This document shows, piece by piece, positions 1,852-19,500 of a stretch of 61,078 bases of DNA. Source of the stretch: Minisyncoccota bacterium (GTDB lineage: Bacteria; Patescibacteriota; Minisyncoccia; Phycocordibacterales; DATDSR01). How positions within the stretch are numbered: position 1 is the stretch's first letter; every line of letters begins with the position of its first letter. The translations under genes were made by a program, and so were the position numbers. The notes under the pieces are model-generated. The model had not been told where the DNA came from. It made no database searches and saw nothing but the letters and a program-made list of their open reading frames with translations. Where the stretch lies: contig DATDVE010000019.1 of assembly GCA_036517655.1 (NCBI GenBank), positions 1 through 61,078 on the forward strand, in the 5' to 3' direction.

Positions 1852-2880
1852 CTACAGTATAACAGGAGTGGCAGAAATATGTTGGTAGACGTACGTGAGA
1901 GCCACAATAAGGACAAGGAGAGCAAGGCCGGAAGCAAGATGTCTGCCATGGTGACGCTTAAGTTCTACTGCAAGCGACAAGACTATGGCGAGCAGAACTA
2001 TGGCAATCAGAACGTAGTAGATTAAGTGCAAGAGAGTGTTGGGACTCGATAGCACACGCGCTCCCAGACTTGCATATTTGGTTGAGTCTTGTTCACCATT
2101 ACTCGTTACTAGTTCCTCGTTACTCGTTACATCTTCAGTCTCTTCTATGTTTCTGACTGCGACAAAAGTAGGAGTTTCGCTTATAGATTCAACTTCTGGT
2201 TCGTTAACTGGCGCGGGAGCCTGGGTGGGGAGAGGCTCAACTTCGCTCGCCTCCACTCGGGCCACCGAGGGCACAATTGATGGCAGTGACGGAGCGTGGC
2301 TCACTGGTCGGCCGAAGTATTGGGCTACGAAAATTGTGGGTTGGCCTTGGTAAATACCTTCTGCTGTGGCAATGCCGATTTCGCTAAATTGCTGATTGAG
2401 AATGTTAGCTCGGTGACCAGGCGAATTCATCCAGGCCTGATTGACCACGCCGGAATCGTTGAAGTTCACCGCCAAATTCTCGCCAGCATAAATAAATCTG
2501 TAACCATTTTTTGTAAACCAATACCAAGGAGTAATACCCGTAGGCGAAACGTGAGCAAAGTAACTGTAACGAGCCATGTCATTGGCCTTCTCCTGCGCAG
2601 CCGCTTCAAGCACGGGATTGCGAGTTAATGGTGTGAGTGAATAGAGAGAGCGATCTTCGTTAGCCAGGTCAATCAAGACTGCAGGCAAAACGCTCGCTAG
2701 ATAATCAATGCGAGAAATTATGAGCGGATAAGATAGAGAAAGTGAGAAAACAGCAACAGCAAAAAGCGAGACAACAGCAATGCTCTTCTTGTGAAAGAAG
2801 TGCGGCTTGTAAGAATTGTGCTCGTGAGGCACGAAGTAATGTCGCAGAAAACCGAGTCCCCGCTTGACAAAATCAATCAT
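1852..2880 (-). CDS. Membrane-anchored CAP/SCP (PR-1-like, YkwD-type) domain protein
   Basis: Has an N-terminal TM segment, then AAAQEKANDMARYSYFAHVSP..GENLAVNF..VVNQAWMNSPGHRANIL..FSEIGIA. A C-terminal TM follows a Pro/Glu-rich linker. Confidence 0.75.
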   Translation of the reverse strand: MIDFVKRGLGFLRHYFVPHEHNSYKPHFFHKKSIAVVSLFAVAVFSLSLSYPLIISRIDYLASVLPAVLIDLANEDRSLYSLTPLTRNPVLEAAAQEKANDMARYSYFAHVSPTGITPWYWFTKNGYRFIYAGENLAVNFNDSGVVNQAWMNSPGHRANILNQQFSEIGIATAEGIYQGQPTIFVAQYFGRPVSHAPSLPSIVPSVARVEASEVEPLPTQAPAPVNEPEVESISETPTFVAVRNIEETEDVTSNEELVTSNGEQDSTKYASLGARVLSSPNTLLHLIYYVLIAIVLLAIVLSLAVELKRHHGRHLASGLALLVLIVALTYVYQHISATPVIL

Positions 2881-2955
2881 ATGTTGAATTATATCACATC
2901 TCCAGAATTTTGCAAGTCGGCTATCCGAGCTTGGAACCTAAGGCTCCAAGTGACC

Positions 2956-2984
2956 TTGACACAGCGGGCGATGGGTGATATAAT
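2956..2984 (+). promoter_or_regulatory. Consensus sigma70 promoter for 3047..3298
   Basis: TTGACA (2956-2961), 17 nt, TATAAT (2979-2984). Confidence 0.6.
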
Positions 2985-3046
2985 GGCCGCAGTAAACTCA
3001 CGACATGAGCCCGGGGTGGCCGGCTCAACGGAAGGGAGGGAAAGAC

Positions 3047-3298
3047 ATGAAGGAAGCGGGGAACTACCTGGTTGTGCGGTATCCCAAGGAACAGCGACCC
3101 ACCCTCGAACTGATGACGAAGGATGAGGTCTTCGCGGGGGGGCAGGAGATCTTTAGCAACAAGACGGATTTGCCAACCCTCAGCCCGGCGGCAACCACAG
3201 TCCTCGAGGGTCTCCTCGAGACGGAGCATGGGCGGGAGGTCGTGCAGAAACTCAGCGAGAACGGATTCAGCATCGGCTTCGGGGCGGCCAACCCCTAG
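3047..3298 (+). CDS. Hypothetical 83-aa protein (GC-rich island B)
   Basis: ATG 3047 lies 7 nt after a GGGAGG SD and is preferred over the ORF-track start 3005. It has a consensus promoter upstream and a terminator downstream. No family recognised. Confidence 0.5.
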   Translation: MKEAGNYLVVRYPKEQRPTLELMTKDEVFAGGQEIFSNKTDLPTLSPAATTVLEGLLETEHGREVVQKLSENGFSIGFGAANP

Positions 3299-3327
3299 AC
3301 AACCCAACCCTATGCAAGCCACAAGAA

Positions 3328-3361
3328 GGCGCGGACCACCCTCCGCGCCTTTCGCAATTTT
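3328..3361 (+). terminator. Intrinsic terminator after 3047..3298
   Basis: GGCGCGG (3328-3334) pairs with CCGCGCC (3343-3349), followed by TTTCGCAATTTT. Confidence 0.55.
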
Positions 3362-3444
3362 GGCTATCCGGACTAGTGGGCTCCTTGCCACGGAATCAGA
3401 TCAGGCATGGGGATCGAGAGCGTTACTCCCCTTAGGCGGCAGTA

Positions 3445-3477
3445 CTCATTGAAAGAAGCGGGGACCTGCGTCCCCGC
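3445..3477 (-). terminator. Intrinsic terminator after 3510..3950
   Basis: GCGGGGAC (3458-3465) pairs with GTCCCCGC (3470-3477). On the minus strand it is followed by TTCTTTCAATGAG. Confidence 0.5.
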
Positions 3478-3509
3478 CTCGTAATGCCTTCGTCCTCTAT
3501 TCGCCGAGA

Positions 3510-3950
3510 TCAGTCTTTCGGGGCTAAGGCGAACATGTGCCTCGCTCCAGCTGCCTGCAGTGACCCGTCGTCCCTCGAGAAGGCGAAATGGAAGGTGACG
3601 TAAGGCTCCCTCTCACCACTCGCGTAAGCCATGACTTCAAGATTCACGCATTCCCCGACTCCGTGAAGGGTGAGGCAAGCTTCTAGTCGATGCGCTTGAT
3701 CGAAGGCCTGTACGAGATCTCTGGATTCGCCATGGCCGAGGCAAAGGTACTTGGTATACGGGTGTCTACTGGTTCCGTCGCAACGGAAAGCCGAAAAACG
3801 AAAGGATAGGTCCGTGCTGAACTGCAAAAATCTGATGAAGAAAAGCAGAGCAGCGTTGTATCCTCGCGTCCACTCGCCACTCGTGTCCGCAGTTTCGAGT
3901 ACATCGCGTAAAGACTTGTCGATGAAGAGGGTAATCTTCTTGGCTCTCAT
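3510..3950 (-). CDS. Hypothetical 146-aa protein (island B)
   Basis: ORF with an AAAGGAG SD 9 nt upstream of the ATG, plus its own promoter and terminator. No family recognised. Confidence 0.5.
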   Translation of the reverse strand: MRAKKITLFIDKSLRDVLETADTSGEWTRGYNAALLFFIRFLQFSTDLSFRFSAFRCDGTSRHPYTKYLCLGHGESRDLVQAFDQAHRLEACLTLHGVGECVNLEVMAYASGEREPYVTFHFAFSRDDGSLQAAGARHMFALAPKD

Positions 3951-4014
3951 TCGCGTTTTCTCCTTTCGAGAGTGGGCACGCCAGGGCCCAATTTAGGGGT
4001 TCAATACTGTCAAT

Positions 4015-4043
4015 AGACTACATCAAAGACCCGATTTTGTCAA
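4015..4043 (-). promoter_or_regulatory. Sigma70-like promoter for 3510..3950
   Basis: Minus strand reads TTGACA (4038-4043), 17 nt, TAGTCT (4015-4020). Confidence 0.5.
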
Positions 4044-4104
4044 TCCCACGTAATGGTTCAAGCATGCCTGAACCATTCTTTACCTAATTCGTGATTCATG
4101 CCCA

Positions 4105-4144
4105 CCCCGAAGGCTTAACCTTCGCGAAGGTTAAGCCTTCGGGG
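4105..4144. repeat. 40-bp perfect palindrome, copy 1 of a two-member family
   Basis: CCCCGAAGGCTTAACCTTCG/CGAAGGTTAAGCCTTCGGGG. It lies 18 nt beyond the stop of 4163..4690 and matches 12948..12987 at 34/40. Confidence 0.8.
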
Positions 4145-4162: not shown

Positions 4163-4690
4163 TTATCTGCTCGACCAAGGAATGAGTTGATTGGGAGTGA
4201 ACATTGGTATGTCTAGATTGACGCCGCGTAATCTGCAGTATTCTATGTTGGCTTTGCGTCTGGTGGTCATGTAGAAGTTGCCCGTTGGTGCGGTTAGGTT
4301 CCAGGGGGCCAAAACGTCGGATGAATTTGTTTGCTGAAATTGATTGAGGGCCGCAATTGTTAGTGGACCATATACGCCTGTTATTGGCAGGTTTGCGTTT
4401 TGATATTCGTTTAAGAATTCCTGCAAGTTCTTGATAGTCTGTACGCCCGCAGTGTCGCGGCCCTTCATTGCGTATTCGTGAAATCTGGCCACACATGTGA
4501 TGGTGTTGCCATTTGCATCTGTAGCCACACCCAAGACTTGACCAGCCGAGACTGGGCCTGTGGGGTTGACTGTCACCGCGCCGAAGAGGCCTATTGGTCC
4601 ACCAGAACCATATTGAGCATAACTAACGAACGGAAGGAAGCTACCCAAAATAAGGCTTAAAACAAGGAGTTTTGCGCTTTTTGCATTCAT
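4163..4690 (-). CDS. Small secreted protein with a peptidoglycan-binding-like C-terminal module
   Basis: Signal peptide MNAKSAKLLVLSLILGSFLPFVSYA. The last ~125 aa are paralogous to the C-terminus of 6325..9423. NLQEFLNEY..LPITGVYGPLTIAALNQFQ resembles PG_binding_1. Confidence 0.7.
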   Translation of the reverse strand: MNAKSAKLLVLSLILGSFLPFVSYAQYGSGGPIGLFGAVTVNPTGPVSAGQVLGVATDANGNTITCVARFHEYAMKGRDTAGVQTIKNLQEFLNEYQNANLPITGVYGPLTIAALNQFQQTNSSDVLAPWNLTAPTGNFYMTTRRKANIEYCRLRGVNLDIPMFTPNQLIPWSSR

Positions 4691-4762
4691 ATCATTAATA
4701 GTTTACAAGCCTAACATACACTAATTATAATGTCAAGCTCTGGCAGCAATTTACAGAAAGAC

Positions 4763-6340
4763 CTATCTCTTTCTGAAGTACGTGCGCAGGAGCAGTACTA
4801 CTAACGATGTAGAAAGGATTGTGTTATACAAAACCCAAAATTGAATGGTGAGGTAGTTATAGTTTAACGGGTGCAGCTTGCCACTATAGGCCATGAACAT
4901 TATTAGGGCTGTGTAAGCGAGTAGATAGATAATCGCGGAAAAAGTTGCTTGTTTGAACGCCCGCGAGGCACCGGGCTGCTTGCTATTGGTCGCCACACGC
5001 GTGGTATTACTTTTGAAAATAGCAGCAACGATAGAGTGACTGCAACTATAGAGTTGGATGAAGTATGAATAGAACGCTCCCCTGCCGAAGCGCGATATGG
5101 GGAAGGCGAGCATATAGGCGAAGCCCCAAATCATGTACGGCAAGAAGATGATCGCGCCCGCGAGGTTGATGTAGTCGTTATAGAAGAAAAGTGTCCAGAA
5201 AAGTTGGAAAGAAAATAACAAAGTGAGCGGGTGGTGGAAATAATATAAGAAGCCGGTGATGTAGGAGAGCTTAGTCTTCCAGGAGACTTGCGCCTTCCAG
5301 AACTTGCGACCCATGAAAGGGAAGAGACTGCCCGTGCACCAAGTGTGTTGTTGGTGGAAGTAGGCGTGCGGATCGTTGGGGCAAGTGCCGATCCCCAAGA
5401 TCACGGGCACGTAGCGCACTGTCCAGCCGAGGGCTTGGAGATCGAAGCCTGTGTGGGCATCCTCGCTGTGTTCTTGCAAACTCGCGCCGCCAATTTGGGC
5501 AAGCGCTTCGCGTCTATAAATAGCATTCGAGCCGCAGCAAATAGTTGCATCAAGTCTATCGCGAGCCACTTCGATTATACGATAGAAGGCTTCCTGCGAG
5601 TGGGCCGCGCCGTAAGCCAGTGGCTGCTCGCGCTTAATCTTCTTGCCCATGTCGAAGTATTGCGGCGACTGCACAATGCCTATTCTCTTGCCACTGTCAT
5701 CATTGCTAGCATGCTCCATGTAGGGTAGGAGCTCGCGGATAAAGTCAGGATGTGGCGCGCAATCTGCGTCGAGGATTACGATAAACTCGCCCGAGCTCCG
5801 CTCGAAACCGTATCTAATATTACCTGCCTTCTTCATATAGCCTCTGTCTGGTCTGGACAAGTACTCGAAACCATACTGTTTGGCCATAACTTCTTGCTCT
5901 TTGCGTGAATCTTGATCTTTAGTATCGTCGAGCACGTACACTTTTTTATTCACATAGGGCAATGCGGCCACGTGTTGCCAAGTGTTGCGCAGTACACTTA
6001 ATTCTTCGCCGCAGATTGGCAAGAACACGTCAACGGATGGCTCCCCCTTCTTTCCTCCCCCATCTTTTTGGCTGGCCCAAAAGTTTTCTACACAAGCAAA
6101 GTGTTTGGTTAGATCGAAACGCTTGTAGAAAAGATTCTGGATAAAGCTCAAGAGATAATATGCAGAGAAGAAGAGCAGAAGCGGCCCGACGAACCAGCGA
6201 AAGAATAAGTCGTAGCGTATAGCGGGGATGAAGCCATATACAACCAAGAGCCAGGAGACAATGCCGAAAGCGAAAAACACCCGCACGAGCCATGTGGGTG
6301 TTTTTCGGACGTATAAGTATTTATCTATCTGCTCGACCAA
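4763..6340 (-). CDS. Family-2 glycosyltransferase, processive cellulose-synthase-like
   Basis: Motifs VLDD, KKAGNIRYG, ILDADC, SEDAHTG and QQHTWCTG (a QxxRW variant) lie between N- and C-terminal TM bundles. The start overlaps the upstream gene's stop by 16 nt. Confidence 0.85.
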   Translation of the reverse strand: MVEQIDKYLYVRKTPTWLVRVFFAFGIVSWLLVVYGFIPAIRYDLFFRWFVGPLLLFFSAYYLLSFIQNLFYKRFDLTKHFACVENFWASQKDGGGKKGEPSVDVFLPICGEELSVLRNTWQHVAALPYVNKKVYVLDDTKDQDSRKEQEVMAKQYGFEYLSRPDRGYMKKAGNIRYGFERSSGEFIVILDADCAPHPDFIRELLPYMEHASNDDSGKRIGIVQSPQYFDMGKKIKREQPLAYGAAHSQEAFYRIIEVARDRLDATICCGSNAIYRREALAQIGGASLQEHSEDAHTGFDLQALGWTVRYVPVILGIGTCPNDPHAYFHQQHTWCTGSLFPFMGRKFWKAQVSWKTKLSYITGFLYYFHHPLTLLFSFQLFWTLFFYNDYINLAGAIIFLPYMIWGFAYMLAFPISRFGRGAFYSYFIQLYSCSHSIVAAIFKSNTTRVATNSKQPGASRAFKQATFSAIIYLLAYTALIMFMAYSGKLHPLNYNYLTIQFWVLYNTILSTSLVVLLLRTYFRKR

Positions 6341-9300
6341 GGAATGAGTTGCTCGGGAGTGAACATCGGTATATCAAGTGTGATGCCACGTAATCTGCAG
6401 TACTCAATGTTGGCCTTGCGCCTAGTTGTCATGTAGAAGTGACCAGTGGGGCCATTCAAGTTCCAAGGAGTCAACACGTCTGTGGCATTGGTGGTCTGGA
6501 AAGTGTTCACTTGCGAGATTGTGAGCGGACCGTAGAAGCCGGTCATTGGTAGATTAGCGCTCTGGTATTCGTTCAAGAAAGATTGCAGGTTGGTGATAGT
6601 CTCATTGCCGGCAGTGTTACGTCCGCGCATTGCGTACTCGCTGAAGCGAGCAAGGCATGTCTGTGTGTTGCCACTTGAGTCTGTCGAAACACCCAAAACT
6701 TGACCCGCCCCCACCGGACCCACTGCCACTTGCCCTGAGCCCGTCGAAGGGCTCCCCACGGAAATGTAAGCACCCAGAACCGATCCCGAAGGCCCGGTCT
6801 GCGGAGCCGTAGGAGAACTGCCCACAATCTGTCCCCCGCCCCCACCACCGCCAGAACTCGCCGGAGGAGTAACTGGTGCAGGAGTATTATCTGTTGGATC
6901 GCAGGCATCGCCTATGCCGTCACTATCCTTGTCAGCCTGATCTTCGTTAGGAATCAACGGACAGTTATCAGCCGTATCAGCATCGCCGTCGTTGTCATCG
7001 TCATCATCACAAGCATCCCCCATAGCATCGCCATCAGTATTTAGTTGATCAGTATTTTCAACCAGTGGGCAGTTATCGGTTGAATCCAGAATGGTGTCAG
7101 AATCCGTGTCATCACAAACGTCACCCTCTGCATCTTCGTTCATGTTGGCCTGATTGCTGTTGGCATTGATTGGGCAGTTGTCGACCCCATTTAATACCGT
7201 GTCGCCATCCTTATCTGGATCGCAAGCATCGCCTATGCCGTCATCATCGAGGTCAGCCTGGTCGAGATTTGCAATCAAGGGACAATTGTCAGTTTCGTCA
7301 GGGACAGTGTCGTCGTCAGCATCACCATCGTCACATGCATCTCCAACTCCGTTTCCATCAATATCCTCTTGTCCTGGGTTCGAGACAAGCGGACAGTTGT
7401 CTGCATCATCTAGGTCATCGTCGTTGTCGTCATCAGTATCGCATGCATTACCTATTCCGTCCCCATCAGTGTCGAGTTGATCGATATTAGCCACCAGTGG
7501 ACAATTATCTGGAGTATCAAGAACCGTATCATTGTCATCGTCACCGTCACAAGCGTCTCCCGCACCATCACCGTCGGTATCTGTCTGGTCTGCATTCACT
7601 ATCAACGGACAGTTGTCTGCTGTGTCTAAGTCGTCATCATTATCATCGTCATCATCACAGACATCACCCAAACCGTCGCCATCGGTGTCAGTTTGATCGA
7701 GATTGGCAATCAAAGGACAATTGTCAGGTGTATCAAGAACTGTATCATTGTCGTCATCCGGATCGCAGGCGTCGCCTAGTCCATCCCCGTCCGTATCGGT
7801 TTGTTCCGGGTTGGCTACAAACGGGCAGTTATCCGTTGTGTCAAGATCCCCGTCATTATCATCATCGTCGTCGCAGGTATCGCCCATTGTGTCGCCGTCG
7901 TTATTGGCTTGATCAGTATTTGCATTCACTGGGCAGTTATCAGCGTCGTCAAGAATTGTGTCGTTATCATCGTCCGTATCACACTCATCGCCAATCCCAT
8001 CACCGTCGGTGTCAGTTTGATCTGGGTTTGAATTAATGGGACAGTTGTCTGTATCATCACGCACCGTATCATCATCAGTGTCTGGGTCACTCGGATCAGT
8101 TACAGTCTCGTCATCATTCAGCAAAGTATCACCATCCTTGTCTGGATCACACACATCGCCAAGACCGTCGCCATCTATATCTTCTTGCCCAGGGTTATCA
8201 ATTGTAGGACAGTTATCTGCGTCGTTTAGGACGCCGTCATCGTCCAGATCTGTATCAGATGTAACAATGACAGTGCGCGTTACTTGAGTCGCAGCAAGCC
8301 CGTCAGAATCAGACACGTCGTAGGTAATAGTGTACGTACCTTCTGCATTAGTTACTGTGTCGCCACCAACCACAATCGAAGACGTAAGATCGCCATCTTC
8401 CTCGTCAGTAGCTGTAGCACCGGGGTCAGAGAAAGTATCGTCAGTCTCAAGTACTATCGGGTCAGCTCCGATAAGAGTTATCACCGGAGCAGCATTATCG
8501 TCATTTGTTACAGCACAAATTATATCCTGATCTAAGACCAGTGTTCCAGTGTCACAGTCATCTGCGTAGGAAACCGCGTATGTTCCTGGATTGTCCTCAA
8601 CTATTGTGTAGGAGCCCAGCCCAGCAATAGCTACTGTCTGGTCGCTCACAACATCCGAGTGAGTGCCGTCAGCGGCAGTGATGGTGAAGGTAAAACTATC
8701 CGCAGAAGATGTACCACCGTCAGTGTTATCAACTGTCTTGTTTATCGTGATTGTCGGTTTGTATGGTTCGCAGTCAGAGTCATCAAAATCAGTATCTCCG
8801 TCAGTATCGTTATCCGCGCCATCAGTACAAAGTCCACCAGTTTCAGTAGATGGAGGGTTTACAACTATTTCTACGTCAATTGTCTCGTCCCCATCTTGCA
8901 AGAACGAAGCACCACCGCCTGTCTTGAAGCTGTTGTTTTTGTTTGCTTCTGCAATAAAGGTAAACGTACCGCCCGTACTTGCAACTGTTGCCGTAAAGAT
9001 AAATGAAATAGAATCACCCGCATCGATGCCATCGCTACCAGTGTTTAGACTTGCCTCGAGAACCCCGGGCTCACCGAAATCGTCAAGGTCCCATTTCCCG
9101 GCATCTTCGGCGTCACTAAAAGATAAACTCGAAAGACCAGATGTCAGAGTAAATCCGGCAGGAAGGTTTAACCTGATTGCCTTCATTTCATCAGTCGAAC
9201 TTGCTGCGTTCGTGAATGTGACTGTAAATTCCACCTCAGAATCGGCATCTACGATCGTAGGAGAGATCGTAACACTAGCCTCACGCACCGGAGCCCCTGC

Positions 9301-9423
9301 AGCTGTGACATACTCGGTGGTCCAGAAACTTGCTCCTACGGACCAGAGGGCCATGGAAAAGACCAGGGCTAGATGGGTTATTTTTCCCACTGTGCTCTTG
9401 CCTACGTTAAATTTGTCGTACAT
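6325..9423 (-). CDS. Giant surface protein with thrombospondin type-3 repeats, Ig-like domains and a PG-binding-like C-terminal module
   Basis: 1032 aa with an N-terminal anchor/signal. It has a C-x-DG-x-DND-x-DG motif and a DUF5011-like Ig domain (PVITLIGADP..TYTITYDVSDSDG). Twelve NCPxxxNxxQxDxDGDGxGDxCD units and a Gly-rich linker precede the shared C-terminal module. Confidence 0.85.
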   Translation of the reverse strand: MYDKFNVGKSTVGKITHLALVFSMALWSVGASFWTTEYVTAAGAPVREASVTISPTIVDADSEVEFTVTFTNAASSTDEMKAIRLNLPAGFTLTSGLSSLSFSDAEDAGKWDLDDFGEPGVLEASLNTGSDGIDAGDSISFIFTATVASTGGTFTFIAEANKNNSFKTGGGASFLQDGDETIDVEIVVNPPSTETGGLCTDGADNDTDGDTDFDDSDCEPYKPTITINKTVDNTDGGTSSADSFTFTITAADGTHSDVVSDQTVAIAGLGSYTIVEDNPGTYAVSYADDCDTGTLVLDQDIICAVTNDDNAAPVITLIGADPIVLETDDTFSDPGATATDEEDGDLTSSIVVGGDTVTNAEGTYTITYDVSDSDGLAATQVTRTVIVTSDTDLDDDGVLNDADNCPTIDNPGQEDIDGDGLGDVCDPDKDGDTLLNDDETVTDPSDPDTDDDTVRDDTDNCPINSNPDQTDTDGDGIGDECDTDDDNDTILDDADNCPVNANTDQANNDGDTMGDTCDDDDDNDGDLDTTDNCPFVANPEQTDTDGDGLGDACDPDDDNDTVLDTPDNCPLIANLDQTDTDGDGLGDVCDDDDDNDDDLDTADNCPLIVNADQTDTDGDGAGDACDGDDDNDTVLDTPDNCPLVANIDQLDTDGDGIGNACDTDDDNDDDLDDADNCPLVSNPGQEDIDGNGVGDACDDGDADDDTVPDETDNCPLIANLDQADLDDDGIGDACDPDKDGDTVLNGVDNCPINANSNQANMNEDAEGDVCDDTDSDTILDSTDNCPLVENTDQLNTDGDAMGDACDDDDDNDGDADTADNCPLIPNEDQADKDSDGIGDACDPTDNTPAPVTPPASSGGGGGGGQIVGSSPTAPQTGPSGSVLGAYISVGSPSTGSGQVAVGPVGAGQVLGVSTDSSGNTQTCLARFSEYAMRGRNTAGNETITNLQSFLNEYQSANLPMTGFYGPLTISQVNTFQTTNATDVLTPWNLNGPTGHFYMTTRRKANIEYCRLRGITLDIPMFTPEQLIPWSSR
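6897..8245 (-). repeat. Tandem in-frame array of 12 TSP3-type Ca-binding repeats (~108 nt each)
   Basis: Repeated NCP(L/I)..N.DQ.DTDGDG.GDACD.DDDND units are visible in the translation. The shadow ORFs on the plus strand are artefacts of this array. Confidence 0.8.
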
Positions 9424-9488
9424 ATATATTTATAGCCATTAATTGCTTAATAAAAAAATCCTCCCTTTGATACAAACTACGAATATAA

Positions 9489-9517
9489 ATACTATCCCCT
9501 CTGGTGCCAGAGGTCAA
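9489..9517 (-). promoter_or_regulatory. Sigma70-like promoter of the surface-protein operon with an embedded 16-bp palindrome
   Basis: Minus strand reads TTGACC (9512-9517), 17 nt, TAGTAT (9489-9494). The palindrome CCTCTGGTGCCAGAGG (9498-9513) fills the spacer. Confidence 0.5.
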
Positions 9518-16539: not shown

Positions 16540-19500
16540 CTATTCTCTGGATTTCTCCTTTGACTTCGGACTTGCGTTCTTCCAACCGGTTCCAGCGGGT
16601 ATTAAGCGACCTATTAACACATTCTCCTTCAATCCATCCAACCGATCCACTCCTCCGCGCAGAGCCACCGACGTAAGGGTGCGCTGTGTGTTCTCGAATG
16701 AAGCGGCGGCCAAGAAGGAAGACGTCGTCATAGAGACATCGGATATACCAAGCAGGGTGTCTTCCGACTGCGCCTTCTTGCCGCCCTTGCTTACCGTAAA
16801 CTCATTTTCCTCGATCAATTCACCCGCACTCACAATTTCGCCTTTGGCGAAAACTGTATCACCGGCATCTTTTATACGCTTGCGGCTGAACATCTGACGA
16901 ACAATAACTTCTATATGCTTGCGTGAGATAACCGCTCCTTGCGATGAGTAAATCTCATGGATAACTTCCAGAATATGATTCTCTGCCTCGATCCGCCCAG
17001 ACATTTCAAAGAGAAGCGAGATATCCACTGGTCCATCCGTCAGAATATCTCCCTTCTTAACAAGTGCGCCCTTCTTGACCAGAATAGTGCGATTACGTGG
17101 GGCAGTATATTCTTCGCGTTCATCTTTACTTTTCCCGCGCGATGCAGGATCTGTGAGAATAGAGATAACTTGTTCCTCATCGCCCGTTCTTATATCTACC
17201 ACTTCACCATCTACACCAGAGATGACGCTCGGATTCTTGGGTAGGCGCTTCTCGAAAATCTCTTCGACTCTGGGCAAACCGGTAGTAATGTCACCCTGAT
17301 CAGTAGCCACGCCTCCCTGGTGGAATGTTCTCATAGTAAGCTGCGTACCCGGTTCGCCGATGGCCTGGGCGGCCACTACTCCAACTGCTTCCCCAAGTTC
17401 CACCAAAGCATTCCTGCCCATATCAAGACCGTAACATTTGCGGCAGAGACCTTCGAGGGTCTTGCAGGAAAGTGGCGAACGCACAATGACCTCGCTCGTG
17501 CCGGTCGCATCAATCAAGGCCGCCTCGCGCTTAAAGATCAATTCTCCTTTCTTCAGAACTCCCTTTACGTCAGAGAGCAATACTCGGCCTCGAATATCAG
17601 CGGCAAAGTTAGAATGCACGTGGCCACTAGCCGCGCGCTTGATTACCCTTCCCACTGTGTCTCCACAATCCTCTTCGCTGATAATCAGACTGTCGGCAAC
17701 ATAAACTAATTTGCGTGTTAGATAGCCGGCCTTGGCTGTGTTAAGGGCCGTATCTGTTAGACCTTTTCTGGCACCGTGAGTAGTGATGAAATATTCGAGA
17801 GGCGAGAGCCCTTCCATGTAAGAAGGGATCACTGGGAAGTTGATGGTGCGACCGGAGGGGTTAACGATAAGACCCTTCATGCCCGCCATCTGCGAAACGT
17901 TTATTATTTTTCCTCTTGCACCGGATGTTAGCATGCTTACTACAGAGCCGTCCGCCTCAAGTGTAGTCGGCAAAATCTTGTCGAGCTTATTTTTTGCTTC
18001 CTGCCACACCTCGATAGACATTCTGTACTTCTCCTCATCAGAGATAAAGCCTTCGCTGAATTTGTCTTCTATTGTAGCCACCTTCTTCTTGGCTTCGGCA
18101 ATAATACCTTTCTTCTCATCTGGTACACGCACCGCATCAATACCCCAGCTAATACCGCTTTTCTTGGCGTAGAGGAATCCAGACTTCTTGACGTTATCGA
18201 GTATCGCGGGCAATTCGCTCAAACCGTAGCGAGCGATAAGATCATCTACTATCTCGGACATATCCTTGGCGGTCACTGGCTTGTTGATGTAGGGGAAATC
18301 GTCCGGCAAGAAACTGTTGAAGCGCAAGCGACCCACTGAAGTGCGGAAGGGCTTGTTCTCGAAGGCGCCAAATTTCTCTTTCTCTGTTGGCAAAACCATA
18401 ATCTCCTCGCGCAGGTTGATCTGGCGGTAATCGTACGAAGCAATCGCAGCATTGGGGCTTGAGAAATACTTGAGCGATTTGACATCCACGTCATGACCAA
18501 TAGTTTTAGTCATCCAATAACAACCGAGAATAATGTCGAGCAGTTTGAACTTGGCCAGCACCTCGTTGTTACCTGGACCAAGCAAGTTCTTCTCTGATGC
18601 CATAATCTCGTCAGCCTCTTTCTGGGCTGCATTTGACAGGGGAAGGTGAACGGCCATCTGGTCACCGTCGAAGTCGGCATTAAAAGCGCTACAAACTAAT
18701 GGATGCACCTGAATAGCATTTCCTTCTATTAGTACCGGCTTGAAGGCCTGTACGCCGAGTCTGTGTAGTGTGGGCGCGCGGTTAAGCAAGACGCGCTTGT
18801 CGCGAATGACGTCTTCGAGAATTTCCCAAACTTCTGGAATACCTTCATCGATCAATTTACCTGCGCCCCTGATGTTAAAGGCAAGCTCTCTCTCTAGTAA
18901 TTTGCTAATTACGAATGGCCTGAATAATTCTAGTGCCATGTGCTTGGGCAGGCCGCATTGAGACAACTTCAATTCCGGACCTACGACAATTACTGAACGG
19001 CCCGAATAGTCCACCCGCTTACCCAGAAGATTCTGCCTAAATCTGCCGTGTTTGCCTTTTAGGTTATCAGAAAGTGACTTGAGTGGTCGGCGTTGGGCTT
19101 GTGAGACAGCGCCCGTTGCTTTGTGAATCGAGTTGTCTATGAGTGCATCAACCGCTTCTTGCAATATACGTTTCTCGTTGCGCAAGATTACATCCGGAGC
19201 GCTAAGCTCGAGAAGTTTCTTAAGTCTGTTGTTGCGATTAATTACGCGCCTATATAGATCGTTGATATCGGAAGTTGCATGCCGACCACCATCAAGGGCC
19301 ACCATCGGCCGCAAGGCAGGAGGGATTACAGGGATGACCTTGAGAAACATCCACTCGGGACGCACAGACCCTCGGCGGAGGGATTTGAGCAGATTGAGGC
19401 GGCGCTCTATTCTTGGCTTCTCGCTTGCATTGCCTTGTTCATACTCAGCCTTGCTCGATTCGTACATTTTGTCGAGATCAAGCGATCGGAAAATATTGTA

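Follow-up and report, generated by a model that had tools for sequence, protein, structure and literature searches.

A BcsA-like glycosyltransferase with a small, putatively wall-anchored partner and a surface protein sharing its anchor in a Patescibacteria locus

Introduction

Cellulose synthases of the BcsA-BcsB type (R. sphaeroides 4hg6/4p00; E. coli 7lby/9b8v) place a GT-A catalytic domain between transmembrane (TM) helices and are accompanied by an extracytoplasmic partner, either separate or fused. Streptomyces CslA-GlxA(-CslZ/LpmP) pairs a BcsA-like synthase in a single membrane with a dedicated extracytoplasmic partner that the system requires; its product must cross and lodge in the peptidoglycan wall, and the glycan supports attachment (PMC11022532, PMC9040799). 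The poly-N-acetylglucosamine synthase IcaA-IcaD likewise joins a processive family 2 glycosyltransferase (GT2) to a small co-encoded accessory protein. Here, we describe a locus on contig DATDVE010000019.1 of GenBank assembly GCA_036517655.1 (61,078 nucleotides, hereafter the window), from the 712-kb, 96.7%-complete genome of a groundwater Patescibacteria member, in which a BcsA-like GT2 is encoded between a large surface protein (L) and a small secreted protein (S).

The GT2 shares with BcsA the GT-A domain between TM helices, the motifs D, DxD, (T/S)ED, the FFCGS-like CCGS, and Q..W, and a gating-loop match. It differs in having no PilZ domain, no BcsB homologue, and Thr for Arg in QxxRW, and in operating without an outer membrane. 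The partner also departs from BcsB: it is 100-200 amino acids long, has (Q)YGGGG at its N-terminus, and bears a peptidoglycan anchor. Compared with Streptomyces, the partners are unrelated: a copper oxidase and a lytic polysaccharide monooxygenase there, a small PG_binding_1 protein here. Orthology to Streptomyces CslA was rejected, as the homologue (40-45% identity) is followed by a PMT_2 gene and not by glxA. IcaD, in turn, is integral to the membrane, has no domain for wall binding, and shows no sequence similarity to S. By analogy, the locus would work like BcsA-BcsB and Streptomyces CslA-GlxA while being a member of neither family.

We interpret the locus as a surface-decoration cassette comprising a PilZ-less synthase, a wall-tethering partner, and an adhesin that bears the partner's anchor, a reading that we modestly favor on balance. 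Full-text literature searches returned no description of such a cassette, nor of a cellulose-synthase-like system in Patescibacteria.

Organization of the locus

The three genes are co-oriented in the open reading frame (ORF) listing of the window:

9423..6325, minus strand: L, large surface protein, 1032 amino acids (ORF, Pfam)
6340..4763, minus strand: GT2, BcsA-like and processive, 525 amino acids, TTG start (ORF, Pfam, motifs)
4690..4163, minus strand: S, small secreted partner, 175 amino acids (ORF, Pfam, structure model)

The first 16 nucleotides of the GT2 gene are also the last 16 of L (6325-6340), and S lies 72 nucleotides downstream of the GT2. An earlier interpretation of this DNA made from its letters, the sequence-only reading, had described the same series of adhesin, overlapping GT2, and secreted protein, which the ORF listing confirms. 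The TTG start of the GT2 is credible because its N-terminal block (KYLY..KTPTW) is conserved across 20 homologues, with K7, L9, Y10, and P15 invariant. All gene junctions are spanned by zero-difference contigs from three independent metagenome runs, ruling out assembly or sequencing error behind the gene order or behind R333T, the QxxRW substitution in the GT2. A strain variant co-occurs in three metagenomes at approximately one-third of the depth, with ~25 differences per 336 nucleotides (window 5144-5479).

Coupling of the GT2 to a small partner across Patescibacteria

S consists of a signal peptide (residues 1-25, ending ..FVSYA before QY), the mature N-terminus QYGSGGPIGLFG, a linker, and a C-terminal module (residues 49-175). 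Orthologues of S (45-79% identity) share the signal peptide and QYGGGG architecture. The possibility that S is a mere truncated copy of L was ruled out by these orthologues with their own architecture and by a ratio of nonsynonymous to synonymous substitution rates (dN/dS) of 0.09.

Among the 120 best GT2 homologues, 19 are fusion proteins of 650-900 amino acids that carry PG_binding_1 (PF01471) at the C-terminus, behind one extra TM helix that places the domain outside the membrane. Adjacency was counted at 21 close GT2 loci. At 15 of these, a small co-oriented gene directly beside the GT2 encodes a protein in which (Q)YGG(G/S)G comes after the signal peptide, a definition that S fits in reading QYGSGG after ..FVSYA. 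Nine of these adjacent partners contain PG_binding_1, either canonical or of the module subtype described below; one has LPXTG with a sortase, and the other five contain a different small domain. Of the remaining six loci, three encode a fused synthase, and three have neither a fusion nor an adjacent partner. At the P0009 locus (L110 7604-8529), the C-terminus of the partner consists of LPSTG followed by a TM helix and KLARR, and a sortase gene comes next; judged by these features, the locus is a covalent-anchor version of the same cassette. Such interchangeability of the partner's anchor (canonical PG_binding_1, module, or sortase signal) points to peptidoglycan as the target.

A predictive test examined three further small proteins with QYGGG and PG_binding_1, two of which are encoded directly after a recognizable GT2. 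One of these GT2s is a 550-amino-acid family member and the other a 420-amino-acid chitin-synthase-like protein that went undetected in the search with the window's GT2; the third small protein follows a contig-truncated gene not identified as a GT2. Ten pairs additionally linked the GT2 and small-protein match lists by equal contig sizes. Adjacency by chance would be expected at ~2%, given about six PG_binding_1 proteins among a roughly estimated ~700 genes. Fusion in some lineages together with tight adjacency in others is a classic sign of physical partnership. On these genomic patterns, the GT2-S link is conserved and real, and the functional tie between the two that the sequence-only reading proposed is supported well beyond this genus.

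In several distant Patescibacteria (L031, L032, L034, L036, L113, and L114), the gene after the GT2-partner pair encodes a membrane protein with a CAP/YkwD domain, which may be a third member of the cassette.

The single feature conserved across all partner types, including those without PG_binding_1, is the (Q)YGG N-terminus; the anchor part is variable (PG_binding_1, LPXTG, other domains). This pattern could be explained if S were a primer or acceptor with glycan attached covalently to (Q)YGGGG, for instance at Tyr, giving a wall-anchored proteoglycan. Tyr-linked O-glycans do occur on S-layer proteins of some Firmicutes. However, BcsA-type synthases need no protein primer and extrude free polymer, the cassette loci examined contain no gene for a ligase or an oligosaccharyltransferase, and the fused forms lack the (Q)YGG motif. 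We regard glycan attachment to S as the least probable of the alternatives considered here.

The shared C-terminal module

The module common to L and S spans ~127 amino acids (AGQVLG...PWSSR) and is 77% identical between them, within a BLASTP alignment of 73% identity across 146 amino acids (E 6e-74). Its two copies are located as follows:

6328..6708, minus strand: module copy 1, C-terminus of L (residues 906-1032), PG_binding_1 core at 6487-6603
4166..4546, minus strand: module copy 2, C-terminus of S (residues 49-175), PG_binding_1 core at 4325-4438

Paralogy over the last ~125 amino acids of the two proteins had been noticed from the letters, as had direct DNA repeats at 4163-4543 and 6325-6705, and both observations stand. 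A repeat search paired 4164-4463 with 6326-6625 at 74%, and codon-registered comparison extended the DNA similarity to ~390 nucleotides from the stop codons (4166-4555), beyond which it was 17-40%. Synonymous sites are near saturation and dN/dS is 0.07-0.09 between the copies, indicating an old duplication with both copies under purifying selection.

S matches PG_binding_1 with 29.8 bits (E 6.8e-7), above the gathering threshold of 23 bits. The L module alone scores 16.5 bits, below threshold despite its high identity to the S module, and a genome scan scored the two copies at 30.8 and 21.2 bits. In the AlphaFold2 model, S is disordered to residue 53, and the predicted local distance difference test score is above 90 at residues 80-150; helices 83-97, 109-121, and 141-154 form a three-helix bundle. 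The best real Foldseek matches to the module are all PG_binding_1 domains (SleB 6tci, SleC, AP3 endolysin, C. difficile 5tv7, and CtpB), with SleB 6tci matched at probability 0.99, TM-score 0.77, and root mean square deviation 2.1. The profile hidden Markov model match and the predicted fold therefore bear out the initial impression of a PG_binding_1-like module. The PG_binding_1 domains of SleB, SleC, CtpB, and phage endolysins have the same three-helix core, LQxxL...G.(F/Y)G..T...(V/L)..FQ. Aligned with canonical partners, the module of S shows four additions to this core: a VLGAST strand at its N-terminus, a pair of Cys residues, an insertion reading DVLxPW, and a tail of ~25 amino acids. 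It also differs in setting, as it ends non-enzymatic surface proteins rather than being attached to a hydrolase.

Module-like domains were found in 51 of 61 order-level relatives, mostly within frames of 400-2700 amino acids. The GT2 was found in eight of the 61, and outside the genus no module adjoined a GT2. An exhaustive search retrieved 3713 representative clusters at E≤1e-3. Of the 148 best module matches, 133 end within 15 amino acids of the C-terminus, 115 lie in proteins of at least 350 amino acids, and 84 have two or three copies. By these comparisons, the module is the domain in which large surface proteins of Patescibacteria usually end at the C-terminus, and it appears to be a generic wall anchor.

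This distribution bears directly on the model of the sequence-only reading, in which the GT2 product is the ligand of the module, and L and S are anchored on a self-made glycan layer. Module and GT2 are indeed adjacent in this genus. PG_binding_1-type domains recognize glycan-containing polymers, and a product rich in N-acetylglucosamine could mimic the peptidoglycan backbone; the DVLxPW insertion and Cys pair, absent from canonical PG_binding_1, make altered specificity conceivable. A dedicated glycan anchor is nonetheless quite improbable because the module is so much more widespread than the GT2 and never adjoins it outside the genus. The module also stands at the C-terminus of hundreds of unrelated large proteins, and the exchange of the partner's anchor for canonical PG_binding_1 or LPXTG/sortase implies a peptidoglycan target. 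The co-occurrence survey thus largely found what that reading had named as evidence against itself, a generic peptidoglycan-binding domain at unlinked loci.

The genome encodes three Mur ligases, which makes peptidoglycan synthesis likely, and about six PG_binding_1 proteins. No match to sortase (PF04203) was detected in the 96.7%-complete genome, and LPXTG with a TM helix is absent from the C-termini of both L and S. With Mur ligases present and sortase absent, non-covalent binding to the cell's own peptidoglycan is the simplest role predicted for the module. A modular C-terminal element that retains a secreted protein on the wall is likewise found in Gram-positive anchors (LysM, SLH, GW, and CWB2, or LPXTG with sortase), from which the module differs in fold and, as regards sortase, in the absence of the enzyme from this genome.

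In other families of the order (L014, L023, L019, and L007), the module is followed by a low-complexity linker and then a C-terminal hydrophobic tail. Some of these proteins have a FALPTNIPDA- or VFPADTGDA-like motif before the tail, which may be a sorting signal.

Alternatively, the module could bind the peptidoglycan of a host bacterium, with the N-terminus of L held in the episymbiont membrane and S serving as a competitor or a soluble form. The hydrophobic segment at the N-terminus of L is long, and its C-terminus bears no membrane anchor; in Paceibacteria, highly expressed extracellular proteins with peptidoglycan-binding domains have been proposed to function in host attachment (PMC10936435). 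Nevertheless, the linker and hydrophobic tail that follow the domain in other families would place it close to the membrane, inside the cell's own wall, and host binding leaves the fusion and adjacency of this domain type with a membrane synthase unexplained. We consider a host target unlikely.

The GT2 synthase

The GT2 is assigned to Glycos_transf_2 and Glyco_trans_2_3 by Pfam and has two N-terminal and at least three C-terminal hydrophobic helices. Its motifs are LDD137, DAD191, CCGS268, SED292, and QQHTW330 (Q330, W334), with a gating-loop-like RVATNSK. A profile of the GT2 family matches BcsA structures at E 1e-52, with the TM region and gating loop included; profile positions 35-511 align to BcsA 215-697, and the family motif WIPTNxK aligns to RFAVTAK. 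The profile match and motifs support the assignment, made earlier from the letters, of a processive BcsA-type enzyme. Scores against the BcsA equivalog models fall short of their cut-offs (TIGR03030, 153.7 bits versus 699.1; PRK11498, 113.8 versus 992), as does that against PgaC_IcaA (46 bits versus 422). Pfam gave no PilZ match in the protein, which ends at residue 525 after a last hydrophobic helix at 499-517, and no BcsB-like gene is present among those adjoining the GT2.

The Arg of QxxRW, kept in at least 90% of the GT2 family, is Thr333 in this protein (ACT, 5342-5344). The sequence-only reading had named a lack of catalytic residues as evidence against itself, and this applies in part: D, DxD, and ED are present, but the Arg is replaced. 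Sequencing error does not account for the change, given the zero-difference contigs from three runs and a Thr codon two substitutions away from any Arg codon. A second change, W448R (4997-4999, minus strand), accompanies R333T both here and in the sister protein P0009 (55% identity; tree support 98/97), and P0010 has Ser at the first site. The W448R position aligns with an Arg in the BcsA gating loop RFAVTAK, and the pair could possibly represent a compensatory relocation of the basic residue.

These deviations could instead mean that the GT2 is dead or decaying, the locus a recombination-scrambled remnant, and the adhesin the only part that matters. Besides QQHTW in place of QxxRW, this view draws on the long terminal branch of the GT2 in the tree (0.93) and on the mosaic character of the locus, with its order swap, module relic, and inserted island (see below). 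Yet three metagenomes contain the ORF in intact form, and in the co-occurring variant strain the Thr codon, with its two-substitution distance from Arg, is unchanged. Among 130 highly conserved columns, the GT2 deviates at seven, a number inside the one-to-nine range of the family, and retention of the same Thr with W448R in P0009 indicates a selected variant. A decayed synthase is accordingly a very unlikely explanation, and, from its conserved residues, the GT2 is probably active.

The large surface protein and the history of the locus

L has a signal or anchor segment at its N-terminus. Ig-like domains and ~13 calcium-binding repeats of the TSP3 type come next, and a Gly-rich linker connects them to the module. 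Pfam matches include TSP_3 (PF02412) over 13 stretches (E 3.8e-90) and Bact_surface_Ig-like at residues 315-387. The repeats form a discrete array:

6888..8256, minus strand: TSP3 repeat array within L (repeat families D1 and D2; 108-nucleotide periodicity)

An assignment of L as an MtsC cell-cohesion protein (NF047638; score 649.7 versus a cut-off of 350) was rejected, as the score derives from six TSP3 stretches; the C-terminus of L is the PG_binding_1 module and not a MYXO-CTERM sorting signal.

Similarity between L and S begins at S residue 30, and L has an extra GGGG...VLG unit upstream, such that L resembles an adhesin to whose body an almost entire mature S has been fused. Between two species, the modules are 79% identical for S versus S and 83% for L versus L, compared with 69-77% for S versus L within a genome and about 50% for either copy versus the outgroup partner P0004. 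These values suggest that the copy was made in the ancestor of a small clade. A second lineage has, independently, a giant SpaA-type protein, the GT2, and a small partner in that order, the SpaA-type protein being without the module. Large surface proteins may thus have joined the GT2-partner cassette recurrently.

The flanks of the trio contain additional features:

1852..2880, minus strand: CAP/YkwD-domain membrane protein, 342 amino acids, downstream neighbor (domain and neighbor comparison)
3373..3450, minus strand: relic of a third module 3' end, 78 nucleotides or 26 codons, NEYCRLRGVTLSIPMPDLIPWQGAH followed by a stop (sequence comparison)
4105..4144, no strand assigned: perfect 40-bp palindrome, 19 nucleotides past the S stop (repeat search, congener copies, depth spike)

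Gene order differs between this locus and that of a congener. Here (4163-9423 region) it is ZIP, L, GT2, S, island, CAP; in the congener (L025 10001-15843), it is ZIP, S, GT2, L, CAP. The two congeneric GT2s are 55% identical and belong to different subclades, and the flanking genes are 70-77% identical; by this comparison, the locus is a recombinational mosaic. Several distant Patescibacteria show the order GT2, S, CAP, so the order in the window is probably the older of the two. Two other congeners, L115 (G001:C35) and L116 (G002:C5), are without the ZIP-L-GT2-S block and have CAP adjoining a DsbA-like gene, indicating that the block is accessory within the genus.

CAP and S are separated here by an insertion at 2900-4100. 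The relic lies between the two orphan genes of this GC-rich insertion (3510..3950 and 3005..3298), neither of which has a family match in Pfam or NCBIfam. The relic is closest to the tail of a 95%-identical S variant (P0001), and the present S tail is L-like, with its last 120 nucleotides 80-93% identical to L. The relic probably represents the former end of S; the insertion that displaced it would have brought the L-type tail, the 40-bp palindrome, and an orphan gene.

Transcription signals and the palindrome

Expression of the three genes from a single promoter had been proposed from the sequence, at the following site:

9517-9489, minus strand: candidate promoter TTGACC-17-TAGTAT upstream of L (consensus scan, 9/12 matches)

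The proposal was not confirmed. Promoter-like sites number 11, which is not above chance given 7.5 ± 3.5 in shuffled sequence, and one sigma-70 promoter driving the operon was dropped as an explanation on that basis. The candidate overlaps the hairpin CCTCTGGCACCAGAGG (9496-9513, minus strand), which fills the promoter spacer and could equally be a terminator of the upstream ZIP transporter gene. A perfect TTGACA is present in the gap between the GT2 and S. The strongest promoter-like match of the region, TTTACA-18-TATAAT (11/12), lies in the same gap on the plus strand (4702-4731) and runs antisense into the 3' end of the GT2. For the minus strand, the search for intrinsic terminators gave none between the three genes or after S.

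The palindrome may be a transcript end or an element of the repetitive extragenic palindromic (REP) type. Copies with 87-89% identity occur in the congener locus L025 at 6224-6262 and 19374-19411, and metagenome contig depth spikes six- to eight-fold over 4105-4144; depth and copies together suggest that it belongs to a dispersed REP-like family.

Proposed mechanism

In the surface-decoration cassette that we favor, the GT2 would polymerize a sugar from a cytoplasmic nucleotide donor and extrude the chain through its own membrane channel. S would be exported by its Sec signal peptide, beginning with the (Q)YGGGG segment and ending in the presumably Cys-clamped PG_binding_1 variant. In related bacteria, the same role would be filled in cis by PG_binding_1 fused to the synthase, from which we infer docking of S on the synthase, with the Gly-rich N-terminus as the probable contact. 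In this position, S would link the exit of the channel to the peptidoglycan of its own cell and assist in threading or retaining the nascent glycan in the wall, serving as a functional stand-in for BcsB in a single-membrane cell. L, carrying almost the whole of mature S (Gly-rich linker and module), would be held non-covalently on the same peptidoglycan. The glycan and a calcium-binding adhesin would be displayed together for attachment or cohesion.

Several observations weigh against this interpretation. The Foldseek E-values behind the module's fold assignment are weak (0.2-0.9), the domain being short. The PG_binding_1 domains fused to synthases are of the canonical subtype and not the module subtype, and the five partner proteins without a recognizable wall anchor imply that wall tethering may not be the partner's core function. 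In the GT2, replacement of the QxxRW Arg by Thr333 could weaken or abolish catalysis, and the sister P0009 has the same Thr with the Trp-to-Arg gating-loop change.

A broader generalization can be put forward tentatively, and with appreciably less confidence than the cassette itself. Many Patescibacteria may possess an unrecognized two-part glycan machine in which a PilZ-less synthase of the BcsA fold is joined by an anchored (Q)YGGGG partner that docks on, or is glycan-linked at, the channel exit and replaces BcsB, with PG_binding_1, LPXTG, or fusion to the synthase as alternative anchors; in this genus, the mature partner would have been copied onto the adjoining giant adhesin, and synthase, glycan, and adhesin would then be pinned together at common peptidoglycan sites.

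Significance

Abundant and mostly uncultured, Patescibacteria are presumed to live in attachment to other cells; to our knowledge, little is known of how their envelope and attachment structures are assembled. The (Q)YGGGG signature would offer a simple search handle for partners, and the PG_binding_1 variant a practical marker of wall-anchored surface proteins in Patescibacteria genomes. A synthase with a peptidoglycan-anchored partner would constitute a testable module for the export of exopolysaccharide through a wall in cells without an outer membrane, a problem that in Streptomyces is only now being worked out.

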